A DNA stretch of 64,000 nt from PVC group bacterium (GCA_043804695.1 JAZDIV010000033.1:10698-74697), one strand, 5' to 3'; counted from the stretch's first letter, positions 38,201 to 47,546 are shown. Made by a program: numbers and translations. Notes: generated from the letters alone by a model not told the origin.

Positions 38201-38266
38201 CGACCCGGGGAGCGGACGGCCCTTTTCCGGGGCCGCATAAAGTGATATACTGTGCTGGGGTCATAC

Positions 38267-40030
38267 ATGAAACCGAAGTTACCATCCTGGTGGAGCATCT
38301 TCTTCTTTCTTCTGTCGGTGTGCGACGGCGCAGGCGATACGGTGTGTGCCGGCACAAATCCCCTCACCGGCTTCGAGACCCGTTCCGACGGGGCGACCCG
38401 GATCACCGACGCGCTCCCCCGCAGCTGCCAGAACCCGGTCTTTTCTCCCGACAGTCAATACATCCTCTTCACGCGATTCATCAACGGCTACAATGACGGC
38501 CCCTCAGAATTGGTGCGGATACGGATCGATGCCACGGCTGAGACGGTGATCGTCTCTTCCGCCGATGCCGATAACGTCAACGTACCCTTCGGCTCCTGGG
38601 CCTCGGGGAAGATCTGCTGGGCATCGGACCGGGGCGGGGGGGCGGAAGAGGTCTTCGTCGCCGACGAAGACGGGACGAACATCCGCCAGGTGACCGACCA
38701 CCCCACGAGCCAGGGATACTATATCGAACCGGTCTTCAACCCCGCCGACACCAACAAAATCCTCTTTGAGATTTCTCCCTCTGACTCATCGGCACACCTG
38801 ATCGCGCTGGTCGAGCGAGACAAAGGAGACCGGGTCACCATCCTGACCGGTGGTACAACGTATGACGACCGCCTTCCGTCCTGGTCACGCGACGGCTCGA
38901 AGATTCTCTTTCAGAGAACCGGCATCTCCGGCCCGGAGAACTGGGAGATTTACACCGCGGCTATAACTCTCGGCGACTCACCCTGCCTCAGTAATTATGT
39001 CAACATCTCCAATGCCACGTCACAGGAAACCGACAACTCCTGGTCATACCTGGACACACGGGTTCTCTCCTCCAGCGATTACGGGAACCTTCCCGTCCCC
39101 AATATCTATGCCTTTCCCTCGAGCGGGGCGGGCCGGCCGCGCCGGGTGACTTACTCCAATGTTTACGAAGACGGCGCCCCTGCCTATTCCCCCGATGGGA
39201 AATGGATCGCGTTCGAGTCGCATTCCACCGTCAACGAGGACTCGCCATCGGCGATCTGGATCATCCCCGCCCGGCCGACGGCCGACCCGATATCTTTTCG
39301 CGGGGGTGATTACACTGGCGACGGTACGTCCGACATCGCCGTCTTCCGGCCTGTGTCGGGTCTCTGGGCGGTCCGGGGTATCAGCAGGGCTTACTTCGGA
39401 GGAGCTTGCGACCTCCCCAAACCCGGAGATTATGATGGAGACGGGACGGGAGAGGCCGGTATCTTCCGCCCGGAGGCAGGTCTCTGGGCGATCCGCGGTG
39501 TCACCCGGTGCTATTACGGCTCCGCCGATGCTCAGCCGGTGCCCGGCGACTACAACGGTGACCGTCTGTGCGATCTCGCTCTTTTCCGTTGGGGCGCCGG
39601 TCTCTGGGCGGTCCGGGGGATAACACGTGGATACTTCGGCTCCGCGGACGATCAGCCGGTCTCCGGTGATTATAATGGTGATGGAACTCTGGATCCGGCC
39701 ATTTTTCGGCCCCTGACAGGTCTCTGGGCAATCCGGAAGATCAGCAGATTCTACTTCGGGGCGGTGAGCGACGGCGCTTTCCCGGGAGATTACAACGGAG
39801 ACGGAACCGCAGAGGCCGCGGTCTTCCGGGGCGTCTCCGGCCTCTGGGCGGTCCGGGGTGTCACCCGGAGATACTTCGGGGCCGCAACCGACCATCCTGT
39901 CCCCGCCGATTACAACGGAAACGGCGGGGATGATATCGGGATATTCCGCGCCAGTTCCGGCCTCTGGGCGGTCCGGGGTATCAGCCGGGTCTATTTCGGC
40001 GCCCCGGGAGACCTCCCCGTCACCCGCTGA
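38267..40030 (+). CDS. secreted TolB-like (PD40) beta-propeller with 6 FG-GAP-like repeats
   Basis: PVFSPDS, PSWSRDGSKILF, PAYSPDGKWIAF; six repeats ending DLPVTR. Confidence 0.85.
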   Translation: MKPKLPSWWSIFFFLLSVCDGAGDTVCAGTNPLTGFETRSDGATRITDALPRSCQNPVFSPDSQYILFTRFINGYNDGPSELVRIRIDATAETVIVSSADADNVNVPFGSWASGKICWASDRGGGAEEVFVADEDGTNIRQVTDHPTSQGYYIEPVFNPADTNKILFEISPSDSSAHLIALVERDKGDRVTILTGGTTYDDRLPSWSRDGSKILFQRTGISGPENWEIYTAAITLGDSPCLSNYVNISNATSQETDNSWSYLDTRVLSSSDYGNLPVPNIYAFPSSGAGRPRRVTYSNVYEDGAPAYSPDGKWIAFESHSTVNEDSPSAIWIIPARPTADPISFRGGDYTGDGTSDIAVFRPVSGLWAVRGISRAYFGGACDLPKPGDYDGDGTGEAGIFRPEAGLWAIRGVTRCYYGSADAQPVPGDYNGDRLCDLALFRWGAGLWAVRGITRGYFGSADDQPVSGDYNGDGTLDPAIFRPLTGLWAIRKISRFYFGAVSDGAFPGDYNGDGTAEAAVFRGVSGLWAVRGVTRRYFGAATDHPVPADYNGNGGDDIGIFRASSGLWAVRGISRVYFGAPGDLPVTR

Positions 40031-40250
40031 TCCGGATCCGGCTTATTCAATCTCGCAGGCTGGCCGCTTCGCGTCCATGCCGTGCAGGTGATTACACACT
40101 AAAATAACTCCCCCGGCAGTTCCCCTCCCCGTCAGAACCGTTCCTCCCAGGCGTCTATTGTTTAACGGCATCTGCCTCAAGGCAGTTGCCGGGTTTATAC
40201 TCCTCATCTTTTCCTCCCTTAAAAAATTAAAAAAAATCAAAAAAAGTATT

Positions 40251-40442
40251 GACTACTTCGTCTAAATCGACTATATGGTCATAATCAACTAAATAGTCGA
40301 TCATGACCAAGTTGTCGTACTCAACCAATCAGTCAATATCGACCGATGTGTCGTACTCAACCAATCAGTCGATTATGACCAATGTGTCGTACTCAACCAA
40401 TCAGTCGATTATGACGATGTTGTCGTATTAGACTGATCGGTC
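40251..40442. promoter_or_regulatory. array of 11 (G/A)AC-N6-GTC boxes, 18-bp period (putative TetR operator array)
   Basis: Boxes start at 40251, 40269, 40287, 40305, 40323, 40341, 40359, 40377, 40395, 40413 and 40431; last box ends 7 bp before the tetR ATG; TTGACT overlaps box 1. Confidence 0.75.
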
Positions 40443-40449
40443 ATTATGT

Positions 40450-41115
40450 ATGAATGCAACGCTGAAAAGCCGGCACACCCGGCGAGCCCTGGCTACCCGG
40501 GGCAAACTGCTCGAAGCCGCCCGGACCCTTTTCACGGAACGGGGGTTTGAACTCACCTCCATTGACGACATAACGCGCCGGGCCGATGTCGGGAAGGGGA
40601 CTTTCTATTACCACTTCACCGACCGGGAAGAGATCATCAAGGCCCTGATCGAGTGGGTGATCGGAGAACTGCTGGCCGTTATCGATAACACGTGCCGGGA
40701 AGCCACGGATCTGAAAACAACTCTGGAGGGTTTGATCGAAGCTCACATCAAGTTCTTTTCGAACCGGTGGGAGGACTTCGTGCTCTTCTTCCAGGGGAGA
40801 ACCGAGCTTACCATCGAGCTGAGTTATGACGGGATTGAGACTCCGTTCCTGAAGTACCTGGAGCGGGTCGAAGAGCTGCTGGTACCTTTTCTCCAGCGAA
40901 GGCTGCCGCCGCCGATCATGCGACGGATCGCCTGCGCGGTAGTGGGGCTGGTCTCCGGTTATTACTCTTTCGCGGCCATCGAATCGCTGGATGACGGTAT
41001 AGATGCCACGTTCGCCTCGCTCCGCGAGGCGATGGTGGCGAGCATGATGCGCTTCGTCCAGGAAGCAAGCACCACGACCGAGAATAGGAGCCAGGAGAAA
41101 GAGGCTGGACAATAA
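40450..41115 (+). CDS. TetR/AcrR family regulator
   Basis: LLEAARTLFTERGF..TSIDDITRRADVGKGTFYYHF. Confidence 0.95.
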   Translation: MNATLKSRHTRRALATRGKLLEAARTLFTERGFELTSIDDITRRADVGKGTFYYHFTDREEIIKALIEWVIGELLAVIDNTCREATDLKTTLEGLIEAHIKFFSNRWEDFVLFFQGRTELTIELSYDGIETPFLKYLERVEELLVPFLQRRLPPPIMRRIACAVVGLVSGYYSFAAIESLDDGIDATFASLREAMVASMMRFVQEASTTTENRSQEKEAGQ

Positions 41116-41192
41116 TTTACACATTAACAGGCGCACAGCACCGAGGCCATTCGGCCCGCTGACTGTGCGGTAACCTCAAGAGGAGAACCTCA

Positions 41193-41696
41193 TTGAAAAC
41201 TATCGATGAGATAGAAAAAACCGATCCGATCGCCATTCCGGGAACCCGGCGACGGCGTCTTAACGGAATCAATCGGAAACCCGGCGACGGGCCAACGATT
41301 AAAGAGGCGGAAGGACGGCGCGTCTTCAATGAAGCGGTCAAGAAGTCCGTCTGGGGGATGGCGGCCAGCATCGACATCTACAACTGCGATCCGGCCACGA
41401 TCCGGGACGCCGACAAGATCCGCCGGTTCGTCGCCGAACTCTGCGACCTGATCGGGATGAAGAGGTTCGGCGAAACTCAGGTGGTCCACTTCGGCGAGGA
41501 CGAGCGGGTGGCGGGCTACTCCATGATCCAGCTGATCGAGACCTCGCTGATCTCCGCCCATTTCGCCAATCTGACCAACACCGTTTACCTCGACGTCTTC
41601 AGCTGCAAACCGTACGATCCCGTCAAGGCGGAACGGTTCGCCCTCAAGTTCTTCGGGGGCACCCGCTGCATCACCAAGATCAACCTGAGGATGTGA
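41193..41696 (+). CDS. S-adenosylmethionine decarboxylase-like pyruvoyl proenzyme
   Basis: RBS GAGGAG with TTG start; IDIYNC, GYSMIQLIET|SLISAHF, YLDVFSCK. Confidence 0.85.
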   Translation: MKTIDEIEKTDPIAIPGTRRRRLNGINRKPGDGPTIKEAEGRRVFNEAVKKSVWGMAASIDIYNCDPATIRDADKIRRFVAELCDLIGMKRFGETQVVHFGEDERVAGYSMIQLIETSLISAHFANLTNTVYLDVFSCKPYDPVKAERFALKFFGGTRCITKINLRM

Positions 41697-41699
41697 CCC

Positions 41700-42656
41700 G
41701 TGCTCGAATTCCGCATCATCACCGACCCGGACGAGTGCCGGGAGATCTGGGAACGGGTCATCCCCCGGGAAACCGTGACGGATCTCTGGGAGATCCGGGA
41801 CTGCTTTCACCGGCACTTCCGGCGTCCGTCCTGCTTCATAACGGCCGTCAGCGGGGGGGAGGTCGTCGGCTTCCTCCCCGTGAGCCGGATCGAGGAGGCC
41901 GGCGTCTACGGCTACTTCCCCGGCGAGACCTGGGAGGGCGAAACCTGGCTGGAACAGAACCGGATCATCGCCCGGGATGACGGGATCCTCCGGGGTCTGC
42001 TCGAACGCTGCCCGGGGCGGCATCACCTCCGCTACCTCGTCAACGGGGGGGAGGGGTGCGCCGTGGATGAGATCGGCTACCTTTTCTCCCCCCCTTCCTA
42101 CGGGTACGACTTCGATAAGTACCTGGCCGAGTTCTCCGGCAAATCGCGGAAACGCCTGAAGCGGGACCTGGAATCACTTGAGAACCGCGGTGTCGAGTAC
42201 CTCCATGACCGGGTCGAGGATTTTGATCACATCGTGCGTCTCAACATCGGGCGGTTCGGCGAGCGGTCATACTTTTCCGACCCCCGTTTCACGCAGAGCT
42301 TCTACAGCATTCTCGATCTCCTCCGGGAACGGGGATGGCTCCGCCTGACCACCGTCCTAATCGAGGGCCGGGTGGCCGCGGTCGACATCGGCTGCGTGTA
42401 CAACGGCGTCTATACCCTGCTCGGCGGGGGGACGGACGGCGATTACCCCGGGGTGGCCAAGCTGATCAACATCCACCATATCCGCCGGGCGTGCCGCGAG
42501 CGGCTGGACCTGGTCGATTTCCTCTGCGGCGATTTTTCCTGGAAATCGCTCTTCCATCTCTCGGTGCGCCCGCTTTATCTCCTGTCCGGCTCTTTTCCCC
42601 GGGAAGCGCACAGACCGGCGCCGGCCGACCGGAGGGAAATGGTGTATGCCGGATGA
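41700..42656 (+). CDS. GNAT family acyltransferase (Acetyltransf_6/CelD-like)
   Basis: FDKYLAEFSGKSRKRLKR, GVAKLIN, VDFLCG...WK. Confidence 0.8.
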   Translation: MLEFRIITDPDECREIWERVIPRETVTDLWEIRDCFHRHFRRPSCFITAVSGGEVVGFLPVSRIEEAGVYGYFPGETWEGETWLEQNRIIARDDGILRGLLERCPGRHHLRYLVNGGEGCAVDEIGYLFSPPSYGYDFDKYLAEFSGKSRKRLKRDLESLENRGVEYLHDRVEDFDHIVRLNIGRFGERSYFSDPRFTQSFYSILDLLRERGWLRLTTVLIEGRVAAVDIGCVYNGVYTLLGGGTDGDYPGVAKLINIHHIRRACRERLDLVDFLCGDFSWKSLFHLSVRPLYLLSGSFPREAHRPAPADRREMVYAG

Positions 42657-43935
42657 GCGCGTCCTGGTCGCGGGGACAACGGCCGACTACATCGACCTCA
42701 TCCGTCGCCGCTTTCCCGGCCGGGCGGTTTTCCTGACCGATCCGGCGGAACGGGCCAAACCTTCCCCCTACCCGGCACCCGACCGGGCATCCGAAATTCT
42801 CTGCGGCCTGTCCTCCCCCCGGGAGGCGCTGGCCGCCCTCGACGGTCATCTCCGGAGGCAGAAGCAACGGCTCACCGGGGTCGCCTGTTTCGACTGCGAA
42901 TCCCTCTCCCTGGCGGCGGAGATCGCCCGCTCTTTTTCGCTCCCTTTCCCTTCCCTGGAAGCCGTGGACGCTTCCCGGAACAAGTTCTTTTCCAAGCGCC
43001 TCTGGCTGGAAGCCGGTCTCCCCTGCCCGGAGGTGCGGCTGGCGCGGACGGCGGACGCCGCGGCGGATTTCCTCCGGGGGATGACCCGGGCGGCCGTCAT
43101 GAAGCCTCTGACCGGGAGCGGGAGCGAGCTGATCTTTCTCTGCCGTGATGAAAAGGACTGCCGGAGAGCATTCGCCACCTTAAGCGAAAAGCTATCCTCC
43201 CATCCTAACAGCAGGATGTATGAACCGCGGACCTGGCGGGGGGAGGAGATCGATCCCCGCAAAGCCTTCGTGATCGAGGAGATGGTGGAGGGAGAAGAGC
43301 TGAGTTGCGATTTCGCGCTCGATCACGGCGCGGTGAAGATCATCCGGATCGCGAGAAAGATACTCGCCCGGAACCAGACCTTCGGCACGGTCCTGGCCTA
43401 CATCCTGACGAACGCGCTCCCTTCCGGCATCGATCCGGCCGGTTTCCGCCGGCAGATGGCGGAGGCGGCCCGGGCCCTCGGCATTTCCCGCAGCATCTGC
43501 ATGATCGACTTCATGGTCTCCCGGGGAAGGGCCCTGATGCTGGAAATGACCCCCCGGCCGGGGGGCGACTGCCTGGTCTCCCTGGAACGGCTGAGCGCCG
43601 GCTTCGACATGCTGGGCTACGCGCTCGATTTCGCCGAGGGACGTCAGGAAGATCCGCCCCCGGCCGGGAGCTGGCAGCCGCTGGTGGGGATCCATTTACT
43701 GGCGGACCGTCCCGGCACGATCCGGGCGATCGACGACCGGAAGCTCCGGGGCGATCCCCGGGTGCTCGAATACAGCCTGACGGCCGGGCCCGGCCGGCGG
43801 GTGCTGATGCCCCCCGACGACTACGATTCCCGTAAACTGGGGCACGCGGTCTTCCGGCCGCGCGATCCGGCCGGGATCGAAAAAGAGTGCCTCGAACTGT
43901 CCGCCCGACTTATAGTGGAATTTGAGCCTGAATGA
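42646..43935 (+). CDS. ATP-grasp ligase (L-amino-acid ligase-like)
   Basis: SRNK..SK..W..AGLPCP, VMKP..GSGS, IEEMVEGEELSCD, LEMTPRPGG. Confidence 0.85.
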   Translation: MPDERVLVAGTTADYIDLIRRRFPGRAVFLTDPAERAKPSPYPAPDRASEILCGLSSPREALAALDGHLRRQKQRLTGVACFDCESLSLAAEIARSFSLPFPSLEAVDASRNKFFSKRLWLEAGLPCPEVRLARTADAAADFLRGMTRAAVMKPLTGSGSELIFLCRDEKDCRRAFATLSEKLSSHPNSRMYEPRTWRGEEIDPRKAFVIEEMVEGEELSCDFALDHGAVKIIRIARKILARNQTFGTVLAYILTNALPSGIDPAGFRRQMAEAARALGISRSICMIDFMVSRGRALMLEMTPRPGGDCLVSLERLSAGFDMLGYALDFAEGRQEDPPPAGSWQPLVGIHLLADRPGTIRAIDDRKLRGDPRVLEYSLTAGPGRRVLMPPDDYDSRKLGHAVFRPRDPAGIEKECLELSARLIVEFEPE

Positions 43936-45248
43936 TGAAAAACACCAAAAAAACCCGGGCCGGCGCATCGGTTACCCCATCCGAAAATCTTCCCCTTGAT
44001 GGGGATACCCTAAAACGGTTCGTGCGGAAGTTCCTGGACCGGCGGGAGCTGTATCTGCGGGCCGCGGAGAGGTGCGGCTCACCCCTTTACCTGATCGAGA
44101 AACCGATCCTGACCGCCCGGGCGAAACAGTTCACGGAAGCCTTCCGGGCCGTGCTCCCGGACATCCGTGTTTACTTCGCCGTCAAGAGCAACAATCACCC
44201 GGCGGTCGCCCGGACGCTGGTCAAGGCGGGGCTTGGATTGGATGTCTCCAGCGGCCGCGAGCTCCGGATGGCGCTGGACAGCGGGGCAGAAGATATCGTC
44301 TTCAGCGGTCCGGGGAAGACCGGCGAGGAGCTTTTCCTGGCAGTCGAACACCGCGACCGGGTGACGGTCCTGATAGACAGTCTCGGTGAACTGGAGCACC
44401 TGGAGTCGATCGCCGGTGAGACCGGAGCTGCTGTCCGGGCCGGGGTGCGGCTGACCACCGATGAGCGGGCCCTCTGGGCCAAGTTCGGCATCCCCCTCTC
44501 CTCCCTGCCGGCCTTTCTGGCCGCCGCCGGGCAGACCGGGCATGTCCGGCTGAGAGGATTCCAGTTCCATACCAGCTGGAATATGACCCCGGACAACCAG
44601 GTCAGCTTCATCATCCGTCTGGCCGGGGCGATCGGAAGCCTGGATGATGAGTCTCGGAAAAAGATCGAGTTCATCGATATCGGCGGGGGCTTCTGGCCGG
44701 AAGACGGGGAGTGGCTCCACCGGGAGGACGGGGGAGTGGTCAACCCGGACAACCGTGACCGGGACCCCCTCCTTCACTTCCGGAAGCCCTCCGTCCCGAT
44801 TCGGGAGTTCGCGGAAAAAATCGGCCGAGCCTTCAGGGAGAAGATCCTCCCCCTGACCGGCTGCCGTCTCTGTGCCGAGCCGGGACGATGGCTCTGTCAT
44901 CCGGCCATGCAGATCCTGCTCCGGGTCACGGACAGGAAAGGGCCGGATTTGGTCATTACCGACGCCGGGACCAATGCGATCGGCTGGGAGCGCTTCGAGA
45001 CTGATTACTTCCCGGTGATCAACCTTTCCCGGCCCGGGCTGACCGAACATCCCTGCCGGGTCCTCGGCTCGCTCTGCACGCCGCACGACGTCTGGGGCTA
45101 CTCCTACCACGGAGAGGACATCCGGCCGGGGGACCTGCTCCTGCTTCCCAACCAGGGGGCTTATACCTACAGCCTCCGCCAGGAGTTCATCAAGCCGCTC
45201 CCCGGGGTGGCAACGGTGGATGCGGCGGGGGAGATCGCCTCGTCGTAA
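43932..45248 (+). CDS. fold-type III PLP decarboxylase (Orn/DAP/Arg family)
   Basis: FAVKSN (PLP Lys), DVSSGREL, KFG, DIGGGF, EPGR, GSLC...D, GAY. Confidence 0.88.
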   Translation: MMKNTKKTRAGASVTPSENLPLDGDTLKRFVRKFLDRRELYLRAAERCGSPLYLIEKPILTARAKQFTEAFRAVLPDIRVYFAVKSNNHPAVARTLVKAGLGLDVSSGRELRMALDSGAEDIVFSGPGKTGEELFLAVEHRDRVTVLIDSLGELEHLESIAGETGAAVRAGVRLTTDERALWAKFGIPLSSLPAFLAAAGQTGHVRLRGFQFHTSWNMTPDNQVSFIIRLAGAIGSLDDESRKKIEFIDIGGGFWPEDGEWLHREDGGVVNPDNRDRDPLLHFRKPSVPIREFAEKIGRAFREKILPLTGCRLCAEPGRWLCHPAMQILLRVTDRKGPDLVITDAGTNAIGWERFETDYFPVINLSRPGLTEHPCRVLGSLCTPHDVWGYSYHGEDIRPGDLLLLPNQGAYTYSLRQEFIKPLPGVATVDAAGEIASS

Positions 45249-45299: not shown

Positions 45300-45324
45300 A
45301 AAAACCGGTCACAGCCGGTTTTTC
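45300..45324. terminator. probable bidirectional terminator
   Basis: AAAAACCGG-tcacag-CCGGTTTTT. Confidence 0.6.
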
Positions 45325-45408: not shown

Positions 45409-46398
45409 TTAGAACCTGCTCACCGCCCGGACGGAGAGAACAGGCCCGTCGCCAACGTCAACCCGGTTGTCCGTCCGGTCGTCGTTGTAGCTCTCGCCTT
45501 CGAAGAAGAAGCGGTCGAAAGCGTAACCCCCGGACAGTGTCACTTCAATATCACCAGCAGGATGTAGGGAGATCCCTCCTTCAGCCCGCTGCTCGTACCA
45601 GAAGAGCCGGTCATCACGATCTTCCCTCCCGGCCCGGTAATAGCGGTCGTTCTCCCAGCGGAAGGAGGCAAAGATGCCGATCAGCGGAGAAAGCTGATAC
45701 TCGCACCCGGCAAAGACGCTGTGGATGGGGAAATAGAACCCCCGAAGCTGCAGTCCCTTCGCGGGGCTATAATTCACGAAGAGCAGAGGAATCCCGACCA
45801 GAGCGCTGAAATCGCGGGAAGGGGCGTGGAGATACCCGGCCCCCGGGATGGGCACGTGGGGGAGGAACTCCCGGTTGGTGGAGTAGTTGAGGAAGAAGAC
45901 CCAGGAATCCCGTCCAGCCGCGGGGATGTTGAGATAACCGTTGAGCATGACGGCCGTTTCGTACCAGCCGTTGAACGGCCGGTCGGAAGGCGAGGAAAGG
46001 GAGAGATTGCCCCCGATTATCCAGTTTCCGGAAAGGCGCCGGCGATACACCGCTCCGAAATGAAGATCCCAGAGTTCGGCAGGCATCTCGTCTCCCGTGT
46101 TCGGGAGAACGGCTCGGGTATGGATGTCACGGAGGCCGAGGCGTGAGACAGCGGTCCATTCCCGGTCCGGCCCCTGGACCAGCGGGATGAGAATCGACGC
46201 CTCCCAGCGTGACTCCTCCAGACCGGTAACCTGGTCCTTAACCCGCTCCCGCGGGCTGTACTCGAACCGGCCCGAAACCGCCGTCCCCTGTTTCCCCGTC
46301 AGCGGCTGAAACCAGTGGGAGATCCCCTCCTGACCGGAGACGGTCATCGGTATGAATGCCAGGAAAAACATGTACATTAATATTATAATTCTTCTCAT
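45409..46398 (-). CDS. outer-membrane beta-barrel protein
   Basis: Signal peptide, amphipathic strands, terminal Phe. Confidence 0.7.
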   Translation of the reverse strand: MRRIIILMYMFFLAFIPMTVSGQEGISHWFQPLTGKQGTAVSGRFEYSPRERVKDQVTGLEESRWEASILIPLVQGPDREWTAVSRLGLRDIHTRAVLPNTGDEMPAELWDLHFGAVYRRRLSGNWIIGGNLSLSSPSDRPFNGWYETAVMLNGYLNIPAAGRDSWVFFLNYSTNREFLPHVPIPGAGYLHAPSRDFSALVGIPLLFVNYSPAKGLQLRGFYFPIHSVFAGCEYQLSPLIGIFASFRWENDRYYRAGREDRDDRLFWYEQRAEGGISLHPAGDIEVTLSGGYAFDRFFFEGESYNDDRTDNRVDVGDGPVLSVRAVSRF

Positions 46399-46422
46399 TA
46401 TATTTATCTTCTCGCTGGCTGA

Positions 46423-46641
46423 AGAGGCTGTCCGATAATTCGGATTTTAAGCATTTAGAGGTCATTCAGACTGTGTCGTAACCATCAAAATGTCATCGCG
46501 AGGAGCCCCGATAAATCGGGGTAGACTGCGCGACGAAGCGATCTCAATTTGAGAACAGAATATGTTATCTTCCAAAGGATTGAGATTGCTTCGCCCCTCC
46601 GGGGCTCGCAATGACATTTCAGGATTTATCGGACAACCTCT
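46423..46641. mobile_element. MITE-like element with AGAGGCTGTCCGATAA TIRs carrying a GTCATYGCGAG..CTCGCAATGAC palindrome
   Basis: 15/16 TIR match; inner palindrome 46491-46616 also present at 58821-58903. Confidence 0.7.
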
Positions 46642-46742
46642 GAAGCCTGCGGCTACCAAAATCGGGTTTATCGAACAGCCACTGAAGTCCCGCATTACGA
46701 GCCGGGTCACAGCTCGAAATCGGGAAACAGGCCCTCACCCTG

Positions 46743-47546
46743 TTATTGCAAAAATCCCCGAATTGCCGCCGCCAGCTTTTCCGGTTCTTCATACTCGCTC
46801 ACGTGGCCGCCGGGAAGTCTCGCGATCCGGGAGCCTGCGATTTTTCCGGCCAGGGCTTCCGATTCGCGCGGCAGGGCAATAATATCGTCATCCGATATGA
46901 TGACCAGAGTGGGCGCCTTGATCTTATGGAGAAACCCCGACGAGTCGAAGCCGGCAAGTACGGGATACTGCCTTTCCATTTCCCCGATTGTGGGCGGAGT
47001 CGGGTTATCGAGCAGCCTCTTCCTGAGTGCTTCCGCCCTGTCTTTATTGGCCAGCGCAGATGCGCCGAAGAGCCAGGGCATGGCGATATCCAGCTGGCAG
47101 TCAACGGATACTCCGTGTTTGATGGCCCGGATCAGACCCCTCTGGGCCATCAGCATCCGTTCGTCCCACCGGGCGGCGGAGTTGACGATCACCAGTCGGC
47201 CGACGGCATCCGGATAGTTGACGGCCAGCATCTGGGCGATCGTTCCCCCCATGGAATGGCCGACAATGTGCGGTTTCTCCAGAGCCAGCTCCCTGATCAA
47301 CCCCGCCGTTCCTTCGGCCATCGACTCCGCCGTCAAGGGGCCTCCGCTGTCCCGGGTGCGGCCCGAACCGGGATTGTCGAAAATGAGTACCCGGCAGCGG
47401 TCGGTAAACAGGGGGTACATCTCCCTCCAGGCGGTGTGATTGGCCCCATATCCGGCTATGAAGACCAACGGTTTTCCTTCACCATGGAGTTCGTAATAGT
47501 AAGAAACGCTATCAACCTTTATCCGCGGCATCTTTCCCTCCTGCAT
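46743..47546 (-). CDS. alpha/beta hydrolase
   Basis: G.G.PLVFIAG, FDNPGSG, GHSMGG, D and H of the catalytic triad. Confidence 0.92.
   Translation of the reverse strand: MQEGKMPRIKVDSVSYYYELHGEGKPLVFIAGYGANHTAWREMYPLFTDRCRVLIFDNPGSGRTRDSGGPLTAESMAEGTAGLIRELALEKPHIVGHSMGGTIAQMLAVNYPDAVGRLVIVNSAARWDERMLMAQRGLIRAIKHGVSVDCQLDIAMPWLFGASALANKDRAEALRKRLLDNPTPPTIGEMERQYPVLAGFDSSGFLHKIKAPTLVIISDDDIIALPRESEALAGKIAGSRIARLPGGHVSEYEEPEKLAAAIRGFLQ

Follow-up and report, generated by a model that had tools for sequence, protein, structure and literature searches.

A conserved TetR-linked cassette that joins a predicted pyruvoyl ornithine decarboxylase to three further enzymes may make an amide-linked putrescine derivative

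Introduction

The closest described relative of the first enzyme in the gene cassette analyzed here is SpeDC (Li, Liang, Phillips, Michael, JBC 2023, PMC10407285), with which it has the AdoMet_dc fold and the spacing of a Ser/His/Cys triad in common. According to the available text of that paper, the SpeD1SpeD2 fusion proteins of D. phosphitoxidans and Omnitrophica are active on ornithine and not on arginine or lysine, the D. phosphitoxidans S229A substitution (the Ser of IETS) leaves ornithine decarboxylase (ODC) activity undetectable, and SpeDC genes neighbor speD/speE, casdh/casdc, or hss. The cassette lies in a 64,000-nucleotide stretch of DNA (the window) from a PVC group bacterium (GCA_043804695.1 JAZDIV010000033.1:10698-74697). 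Here, unlike in the published SpeDC contexts, the speDC-type gene stands with genes for a GNAT, an ATP-grasp protein, and a pyridoxal 5′-phosphate (PLP) decarboxylase under a TetR, and its product falls into a clade of its own (support, 82/91).

The other three enzymes also have described counterparts. The L-amino acid ligases BL00235, RizA, and BacD/YwfE, which consist of ATP-grasp_4 and LAL_C2 domains, give the best profile and fold matches to the cassette ATP-grasp; however, identity is 12 to 16%, and the cassette enzyme is found naturally fused to the GNAT or to the PLP decarboxylase. In butirosin biosynthesis, BtrJ is the ATP-grasp partner of BtrK. This pairing of an ATP-grasp with a clade-2 fold-III decarboxylase is the one seen in the cassette, and BtrK, the second-best PDB match of the cassette decarboxylase (131 bits), has the same LCTP.D loop, whereas a carrier protein is not conserved with the cassette and BtrJ is likened by role, not by sequence. 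The available text of PMC7857480 gives γ-glutamyl-S-BtrI as the substrate of BtrK. A conjugated amino acid is likewise the substrate of FslC/FigC, SbnH, and AcsE, the citryl-amino-acid decarboxylases of siderophore pathways independent of nonribosomal peptide synthetase (NIS pathways), among which FslC gives a putrescine moiety; in contrast to these pathways, the cassette has no NIS synthetase, and its amides would come from the ATP-grasp and a FemX-like enzyme. Finally, the Fem transferases and Sba18/Sbb17 have the tandem-GNAT fold in common with the model of the cassette GNAT over about 260 to 280 aligned residues (Z 17.5 to 18.1), but they are only 10 to 16% identical to it, and the cassette protein falls outside Pfam FemAB.

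Full-text literature searching found no paper describing the four-gene cassette, and the words ATP-grasp, acetyltransferase, and TetR are absent from PMC10407285. With moderate confidence, we propose that the locus is a repressed, inducible, and horizontally spread operon for a small, cationic, amide-linked compound based on putrescine, made by the steps laid out in the Discussion.

Results

Four coupled enzyme genes behind tetR

The original prediction, made from the sequence of the window, placed four tightly coupled enzyme genes downstream of tetR. Their open reading frames lie where it had put them, and every Pfam score of tetR and the four enzymes lies above the curated cutoff. The genes are as follows.

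40450-41115, plus strand: tetR, first gene of the unit; TetR_N, 59.6 bits
41193-41696, plus strand: SpeD-like gene; AdoMet_dc, 77.9 bits (cutoff, 25)
41700-42656, plus strand: GNAT gene; Acetyltransf_6, 85.6 bits
42646-43935, plus strand: ATP-grasp gene; ATP-grasp_4, 48.2 bits, and LAL_C2, 30.6 bits
43932-45248, plus strand: PLP decarboxylase gene; Orn_Arg_deC_N, 99 bits, and Orn_DAP_Arg_deC, 31 bits

The SpeD-like and GNAT genes are separated by a 3-bp gap, the GNAT and ATP-grasp genes overlap by 11 bp, and the ATP-grasp and decarboxylase genes overlap by 4 bp. A search of NCBIfam assigned no equivalog to any operon protein and gave no match of any kind for the GNAT, and the PADLOC anti-phage defense models recognized zero families among the six proteins searched (6/6). 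The host genome is a metagenome-assembled genome of the PVC group that is 88% complete.

The cassette recurs in order across many phyla

The locus had been described as an orphan operon, and a neighborhood search for the four genes had been proposed. This search was run, and the description does not hold, since the same cassette is syntenic across many phyla. The SpeD-like alignment (A1) was compared with one genome per species (185,579 species); at least 598 stretches matched, of which 490 were confirmed by tblastn, giving at least 490 loci. Synteny was counted on the best 80 of these confirmed loci, and the four genes are complete and in the order SpeD, GNAT, ATP-grasp, decarboxylase in 65 of them. 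Of the rest, 14 end at a contig edge and one is decayed. The decayed locus (L048), on a "Deltaproteobacteria" chromosome, is a second cassette with a truncated ATP-grasp gene and no decarboxylase gene, and the same genome holds an intact copy (L063).

The 80 best loci span more than 12 phyla. Hosts belong to PVC, Planctomycetota, Omnitrophota, Zixibacteria, Ignavibacteriota, Thermodesulfobacteriota and other "delta" lineages, Deferribacterota (including Seleniivibrio), Nitrospirota, Armatimonadota, Acidobacteriota, Chloroflexota, Sumerlaeota, Hydrogenedentota, Lentisphaerota, and Eisenbacteria. The species genomes with the cassette, at least 490 in number, are mostly those of uncultivated anaerobes that live in sediments, aquifers, and bioreactors. 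Measured against the window proteins, median identity in the 80 loci is 70% (SpeD), 52% (GNAT), 43% (ATP-grasp), and 54% (decarboxylase), and the SpeD gene retains 56 to 80% identity across phyla. Within the window's phylum, gene order is identical in nine relatives among the loci compared, and strong GNAT matches (E ≤ 1e-80) occur in 10 of 61 genomes, the window's own included. Occurrence is patchy. For instance, 14 of 81 sampled genomes carry the cassette in the Zixibacteria-type phylum compared to 1 of 81 in Omnitrophota, seeds counted. Together, the high identity across phyla and the patchiness suggest that the cassette is an accessory module that has spread horizontally.

Natural gene fusions tie the enzymes to one another. 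In a collection of 5.8 billion proteins, the GNAT is fused to the ATP-grasp in three clusters (P0151, P0003, and P0152), the ATP-grasp to the decarboxylase in two (P0153 and P0154), and the decarboxylase to SpeD in four (P0156 to P0159). A good example of the last kind is P0159, with 47% identity to the window decarboxylase and the motif IETSLISGHF in its SpeD part. Since these pairwise fusions link all four enzymes, it can be argued that the four serve one pathway.

The SpeD-like protein resembles pyruvoyl ornithine decarboxylases

The pyruvoyl-site motif of the SpeD-like protein, IETSLISAHFAN, is unchanged in 10 of 10 close orthologs, in all of which S118, H123, and C138 are also invariant. 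These three residues align with the Ser, His, and Cys of ESHI.IH...C in canonical SpeD genes from the same phylum, and the spacing from S118 to H123 (+5) and C138 (+20) is the same as in T. maritima S63/H68/C83, which the available text of PMC10407285 names as essential. The residue ahead of the serine is Thr, not Glu. Also missing is the proline of the HTWPE motif of S-adenosylmethionine decarboxylase (AdoMetDC), where the window protein reads HFAN; this proline is described as fully conserved in true AdoMetDCs in the same text. In keeping with this, TIGR03330, the model for Bacillus-type AdoMetDC, scores 27.2 bits against a cutoff of 75.65. The site IET|SLISAHF had been pointed out in the original prediction as deviating from the usual pattern. 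The motif is present and the serine was correctly located; however, the sequence is not an oddity but a hallmark of SpeDC.

The likeness to the assayed SpeDC domains is close. In the supplement of PMC10407285, the SpeD1SpeD2 proteins of D. phosphitoxidans and Omnitrophica have C-terminal domains that read ...FGEDERV.G.S..QLIETSL.SGHFAN...Y.D.FSCK..., and the core QLIETSLIS.HFAN...YLDVFSCK of these SpeD2 domains is that of the cassette enzyme, both lacking the AdoMetDC proline. By hand count, 77 of 115 positions (about 67%) are identical between the window protein and the D. phosphitoxidans ODC domain, and the core motif differs at one Ala/Gly position (IETSLISAHF in the window and IETSLISGHF in D. 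phosphitoxidans). The available text of the paper gives four central residues, Gln, Thr, Phe, and Tyr, as diagnostic of SpeDC. The window protein has Q113, T117, F124, and Y132, the same as the assayed D. phosphitoxidans SpeD2 domain, and we infer that these are the four diagnostic columns.

A maximum likelihood tree (63 rows, 115 columns) has many open forks, and the assayed D. phosphitoxidans sequence itself is not among its rows. Even so, a SpeDC-type superclade and canonical SpeD are parted with a support of 100/100. In the superclade, a cassette group of 42 rows (82/91) holds the cassette enzymes, the decarboxylase-fused forms, the 295-residue protein P0155, which has one AdoMet_dc domain, and a solo copy; SpeD1-SpeD2-like fusions are found beside this group, as are SET-domain fusions. 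Further removed is a class in the window's phylum that is located in a SpeD-SpeE-SpeD2 cluster, which is the published SpeDC context. Searches of the PDB with the SpeD-like protein returned no match by single sequence and nothing useful by profile. A Pfam search of the window's own genome found one AdoMet_dc gene, the one in the cassette. The protein is predicted to be a SpeDC-type pyruvoyl L-ornithine decarboxylase that yields putrescine. Proenzyme cleavage is predicted at T117|S118, and H123 and C138 should be the catalytic partners.

Two further arrangements of SpeDC-type genes were seen. An Omnitrophota genome carries a solo second copy 2.9 kb downstream of its cassette (L094:8001-8384). 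In Leptospiraceae-like genomes, a SpeDC-type domain follows an N-terminal SET domain in proteins of about 300 amino acids (P0167 to P0177), one cluster of which is found on 65 contigs.

The PLP decarboxylase appears suited to a conjugated substrate

Among 60 orthologs of the PLP decarboxylase, K85, H213, GGG at 251 to 253, and EPGR at 316 to 319 are invariant, so that the catalytic scaffold is intact. The replacement of the typical H.GSQ by FHTSWN, which had been noticed in the window protein, recurs in 60 of 60 orthologs, with H213, S215, and W216 invariant. Two more differences set the enzyme apart from the aligned diaminopimelate decarboxylases (DAPDCs): the specificity loop reads LCTPHD compared to CESGD in 2yxx and CETGD in 2p3e, and W352-E-R stands at the position of the DAPDC R-P.

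In NCBIfam, the best match of the decarboxylase is TIGR01048 (LysA) at 146 bits, under the cutoff of 297.9, and the FslC model gives 56 bits against a cutoff of 500. Searched against the PDB, the family profile scores highest with FslC, the N-citrylornithine decarboxylase (136.9 bits), followed by BtrK (131 bits), the Aquifex DAPDC (129.8 bits), and SbnH (127.5 bits). In the available text of PMC7857480, FigC/FslC, SbnH, AcsE, MccE, and BtrK form one clade with DAPDC, these five enzymes act on conjugated amino acids, and a Cys loop and a 3-10 helix set their specificity; the His of CTPHD in the cassette enzyme coincides with the position of FigC H357 as given there. From these motifs, the protein is predicted to be a fold-III decarboxylase for a side-chain-conjugated amino acid.

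An assignment as LysA was considered and rejected, given the score below the cutoff, the replacement of the residues with which DAPDC binds the distal group of its substrate, and the presence of a true LysA elsewhere in the genome. The suggestion in the original prediction that both decarboxylases have nonstandard substrates thus gains support from the SpeDC motif, from AdoMetDC and LysA scores below their cutoffs, and from this separate LysA.

An L-amino-acid-ligase-type ATP-grasp and a FemX-like GNAT

A profile built from 68 ATP-grasp orthologs matched PDB entry 4dim at 99.7 bits, BL00235 (3vot) at 90.7 bits, and BacD at 53 bits, whereas a PDB search with the single sequence gave no match. 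In the predicted model (mean predicted local distance difference test [pLDDT], 95.1), the nearest structures by Foldseek are BL00235/3vot (TM score, 0.74 to 0.81), RizA, and BacD. By profile and predicted fold, the ATP-grasp is an amide ligase of the L-amino-acid-ligase type, and an amine, in place of an amino acid, may be among its substrates.

A second amide-ligase module was found downstream of the cassette at L025, L031, L041, and L083, three of which are Zixibacteria loci; it pairs a RimK-like ATP-grasp with a GNAT-DUF3335 (peptidase C39-like) protein. An RLAN-domain protein lies beside this module in three loci, L041 among them.

For the GNAT, an AlphaFold2 model from 74 orthologs reached a pLDDT of 91.5. 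The top three Foldseek matches of this model are Sbb17/Sba18 structures (E 1.5e-12 to Sbb17; TM score, 0.55 to 0.63), followed by FemX; in VIA-align, these three stand at ranks 3, 6, and 9. VIA-align gave a Z score of 18.1 for FemX (279 residues; root mean square deviation, 4.4), 18.0 for Sba18, and 16.9 for FemA, compared to 14.8 to 14.0 for the MprF aminoacyl-lipid synthases and 13.8 or less for CoA-dependent tandem GNATs. All of the top 21 rows are aminoacyl-tRNA users except 2hqy (rank 12), which has no assigned function. Against the PDB, the single sequence gave one chance-level match (E 0.07) and the profile nothing useful, and relatives in the ESM Atlas are clusters with generic names only. 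The family profile finds 786, 378, and 160 proteins at E values of 1e-3, 1e-10, and 1e-30, respectively, among 1.84 billion representative proteins. On its predicted fold, the GNAT is a FemX-like transferase predicted to depend on aminoacyl-tRNA. Of the acyl or aminoacyl transfer originally suggested for it, the aminoacyl alternative, in its tRNA-dependent form, is the one that this fold favors, rather than an acetyltransferase.

On a metagenome contig (L129, 1-1508), a PurD-like ATP-grasp gene is directly followed by that of a distant GNAT paralog (33% identity to P0038), so that GNAT and ATP-grasp are also paired outside the cassette. In a genome of the same genus (G001), contigs C19 and C48 carry two GNAT copies with identical scores, which reflect either a duplication or an artifact of assembly or contamination (8% contamination).

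Phased boxes before tetR and the flanking genes

Two noncoding features bound the operon.

40249-40442, plus strand: operator array with promoter-like TTGACT; 11 boxes of (G/A)AC-N6-GTC at an exact spacing of 18 bp
45300-45323, plus strand: terminator-like hairpin with a stem of 10 pairs and a T run after it, 52 bp past the decarboxylase stop codon

The boxes start at 40251, 40269, and so on to 40431, and the last one ends 8 bp ahead of the tetR ATG. Seven are strict GAC-N6-GTC and four are AAC-N6-GTC. The first box overlaps TTGACT (40249-40254), and a 36-bp direct repeat (four overlapping 72-nucleotide copies) spans the array. The promoter TTGACT...TATATG upstream of tetR was identified by eye and was not reported by a sigma-70 promoter scan. 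The array is not peculiar to the window. In 47 of the 80 loci, a tetR ortholog of 36 to 84% identity is encoded upstream on the same strand. The 280 bp before tetR have a median of 3 strict boxes, whereas 0.2 would be expected from what each locus holds elsewhere (53 rows, which represent 50 distinct loci). At least one box is present in 48 of the 50 distinct tetR loci and at least three in 26 of the 50, and the arrangement TTGAC...GAC-TATAT-GTC recurs from Planctomycetota to Chloroflexota. This recurrence suggests that TetR binds the phased GAC-N6-GTC boxes; its matches in the PDB are generic relatives only and give no clue to the ligand.

Other lineages have a different regulator. A sigma-54 activator gene lies upstream in 19 loci (20 loci overall), divergently in 18 of them, mostly in Thermodesulfobacteriota without an adjacent TetR. 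The strict sigma-54 consensus was found in 5 of the 41 loci that a script classed as without an upstream TetR, and a looser pattern in 7 of 18 activator loci compared to 0.02 expected per 510 bp, which supports sigma-54 control in part.

As for neighboring genes, a major facilitator superfamily (MFS) transporter directly follows the cassette in eight loci, a hint of export, and an ammonium transporter lies near it in three. In the window, the operon converges on a gene for a predicted outer-membrane barrel (45409-46398, minus strand, 329 amino acids) that has no Pfam, NCBIfam, or PADLOC family, and beyond the barrel lies a gene for an alpha/beta hydrolase (PcaD-like, below the cutoff; minus strand), the two spanning 45409-47546. 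The original prediction had left it undecided whether the barrel is linked to the operon. Barrel and hydrolase are syntenic with the operon solely inside the window's own family, which places the barrel outside the core. Upstream, a secreted PD40/FG-GAP repeat protein (38252-40030) is unrelated to the operon.

Polyamine and lysine genes elsewhere in the genomes

The SpeD homolog is, as originally proposed, not partnered with a spermidine synthase, for a search for Spermine_synth (PF01564) found no match in the 88%-complete genome. The missing aminopropyltransferase is thus a feature of this genome as searched but not a trait of the cassette, since Spermine_synth matches are present in four of five other cassette-bearing genomes. 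The search for an OKR_DC decarboxylase in the own genome was also negative. On contig C152 (21704-24547; L124, L127, and L128), a pyruvoyl arginine decarboxylase (PvlArgDC, 206 bits), a deoxyhypusine synthase homolog (SpeY-like, 312 bits), and a divergent agmatinase (215 bits) are clustered and probably provide homospermidine synthesis, and therefore housekeeping polyamine synthesis appears to be supplied outside the cassette. The true LysA is on another contig and scores 490 bits. The separate LysA and polyamine cluster, together with the patchy distribution, suggest that the cassette does not have a housekeeping function.

Discussion

An amide-linked derivative of a diamine or polyamine, the product originally envisaged, remains the likeliest product of the cassette. 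In the pathway that we propose, the SpeDC-type enzyme would cleave itself at T117|S118 and turn L-ornithine into putrescine, a step for which the close homology to an assayed enzyme argues. The L-amino-acid-ligase-type ATP-grasp would then form an amide that spares one α-amino-acid center. Both pyruvoyl and PLP decarboxylases require a free α-amino-acid center. Because of this, the substrate of the PLP enzyme would have to be linked through its side chain, and candidates for the product of the ligation are γ-glutamyl-putrescine and N-δ-acyl-ornithine. The FslC/BtrK/SbnH-like PLP enzyme would strip the carboxylate from this conjugate, as its nearest characterized relatives and the ATP-grasp-decarboxylase fusions suggest. 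Lastly, the FemX-like GNAT, if its predicted fold is a guide, would transfer an amino acid from aminoacyl-tRNA onto a free amine. The final compound would be a pseudo-peptide that lacks a carboxylate and has at least two amino groups. TetR would sit on the phased boxes, which overlie the promoter and extend downstream of it, and be let go by ligand binding, and in lineages without TetR the divergent sigma-54 activator would take its place.

Several points weigh against this proposal. The validated ODC domain belongs to the neighboring fusion clade, and the cassette clade could have switched substrate. L-amino acid ligases usually activate α-carboxylates, which leaves no free α-amino-acid center for a later decarboxylation. 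In the profile search, the DAPDC score is about 7 bits from that of FslC, and for this reason the prediction of a conjugated substrate rests on the motifs, not on the rank. The GNAT has no Pfam FemAB match, Acetyltransf_6 being its sole family at E ≤ 0.01, and a common fold is no proof that it uses tRNA. The order of the steps and the identities of the amino acids are guesses. Finally, among the loci compared, no carrier protein, reductase, or extra tailoring gene is conserved with the cassette, and the chemistry may therefore depart from every analogy drawn here.

Other readings of the same genes start from the decarboxylases. Both could act on free amino acids and supply two amines, putrescine and another such as cadaverine, diaminopropane, or an amine derived from a D-amino acid, which the amide enzymes would join to an acid or amino acid to give a bis-amide polyamine or a chelator-like compound. 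The cassette does have two amide-bond enzymes, decarboxylase-SpeD fusions occur in four clusters, and the PLP clade also holds DAPDC and the D-ornithine/lysine decarboxylases, which are free-substrate enzymes. We nevertheless hold this to be unlikely, since the residues that face the distal group in DAPDC are replaced (CTPHD and W-E-R), the LCTP.D loop is common to the conjugate enzymes BtrK and SbnH, and the fusions of ATP-grasp and decarboxylase suggest consecutive steps. Least credible of all, and to our mind highly improbable, is that the enzymes are canonical, an AdoMetDC giving decarboxylated S-adenosylmethionine and a LysA. The AdoMet_dc family in Pfam and the LysA model as best NCBIfam match would point that way; however, both NCBIfam scores are far under their cutoffs, the SpeDC motif takes the place of a site with the AdoMetDC proline, spermidine synthase was not found in the 88%-complete genome, and the true LysA is encoded elsewhere.

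A different destination for the product was also weighed. The nearest folds of the GNAT include FemX and FemA, whose substrates are peptidoglycan precursors, and MprF, whose substrates are lipids, and in the window's family a predicted outer-membrane barrel converges on the operon, so that the cassette might decorate a macromolecule or an envelope precursor (peptidoglycan precursor, lipid, or protein) with a putrescine-derived group in a Fem- or MprF-like manner. This seems quite improbable to us. The barrel is limited to that family, and across phyla the cassette has no conserved membrane domain, Mur-type ligase, or envelope gene beside it; moreover, the top Foldseek matches, Sbb17/Sba18, have a small-molecule substrate, and TetR control with MFS neighbors better matches a small molecule. 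There is very little to recommend the view that the cassette breaks down or detoxifies an imported amino-acid conjugate or polyamine. Operons for catabolism are often governed by TetR or sigma-54 activators, and an ammonium transporter is nearby in three loci, but two amide-forming enzymes that consume ATP or charged tRNA would be unexpected in catabolism, and the cassette has no conserved companion that is a hydrolase, oxidase, or aminotransferase.

A more specific picture can also be drawn, which taken as a whole we regard as doubtful. In this picture, the product is a bacterial polycation of a class not seen before, an amide analog of homospermidine with a 4-aminobutanoyl- or β-alanyl-putrescine core. 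The core would arise by ATP-grasp ligation followed by two decarboxylations, and an amino acid delivered by tRNA would be added to it. Hundreds of anaerobic lineages would make such a compound on demand, with the four enzymes working as one assembly, as the pairwise fusions might indicate.

Each enzyme of the cassette comes from a known family, and it is their combination and its product for which the literature searched holds no description. The four genes are small and self-contained, which makes the proposal directly testable by heterologous expression. If it is true, pyruvoyl ornithine decarboxylases would reach beyond core polyamine synthesis, and FemX-like tRNA-dependent transferases would have a small-molecule role in the phyla that carry the cassette. 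The cassette may also lead to polyamine-like metabolites of a new family and to a compact switch formed by a repressor and its operator.

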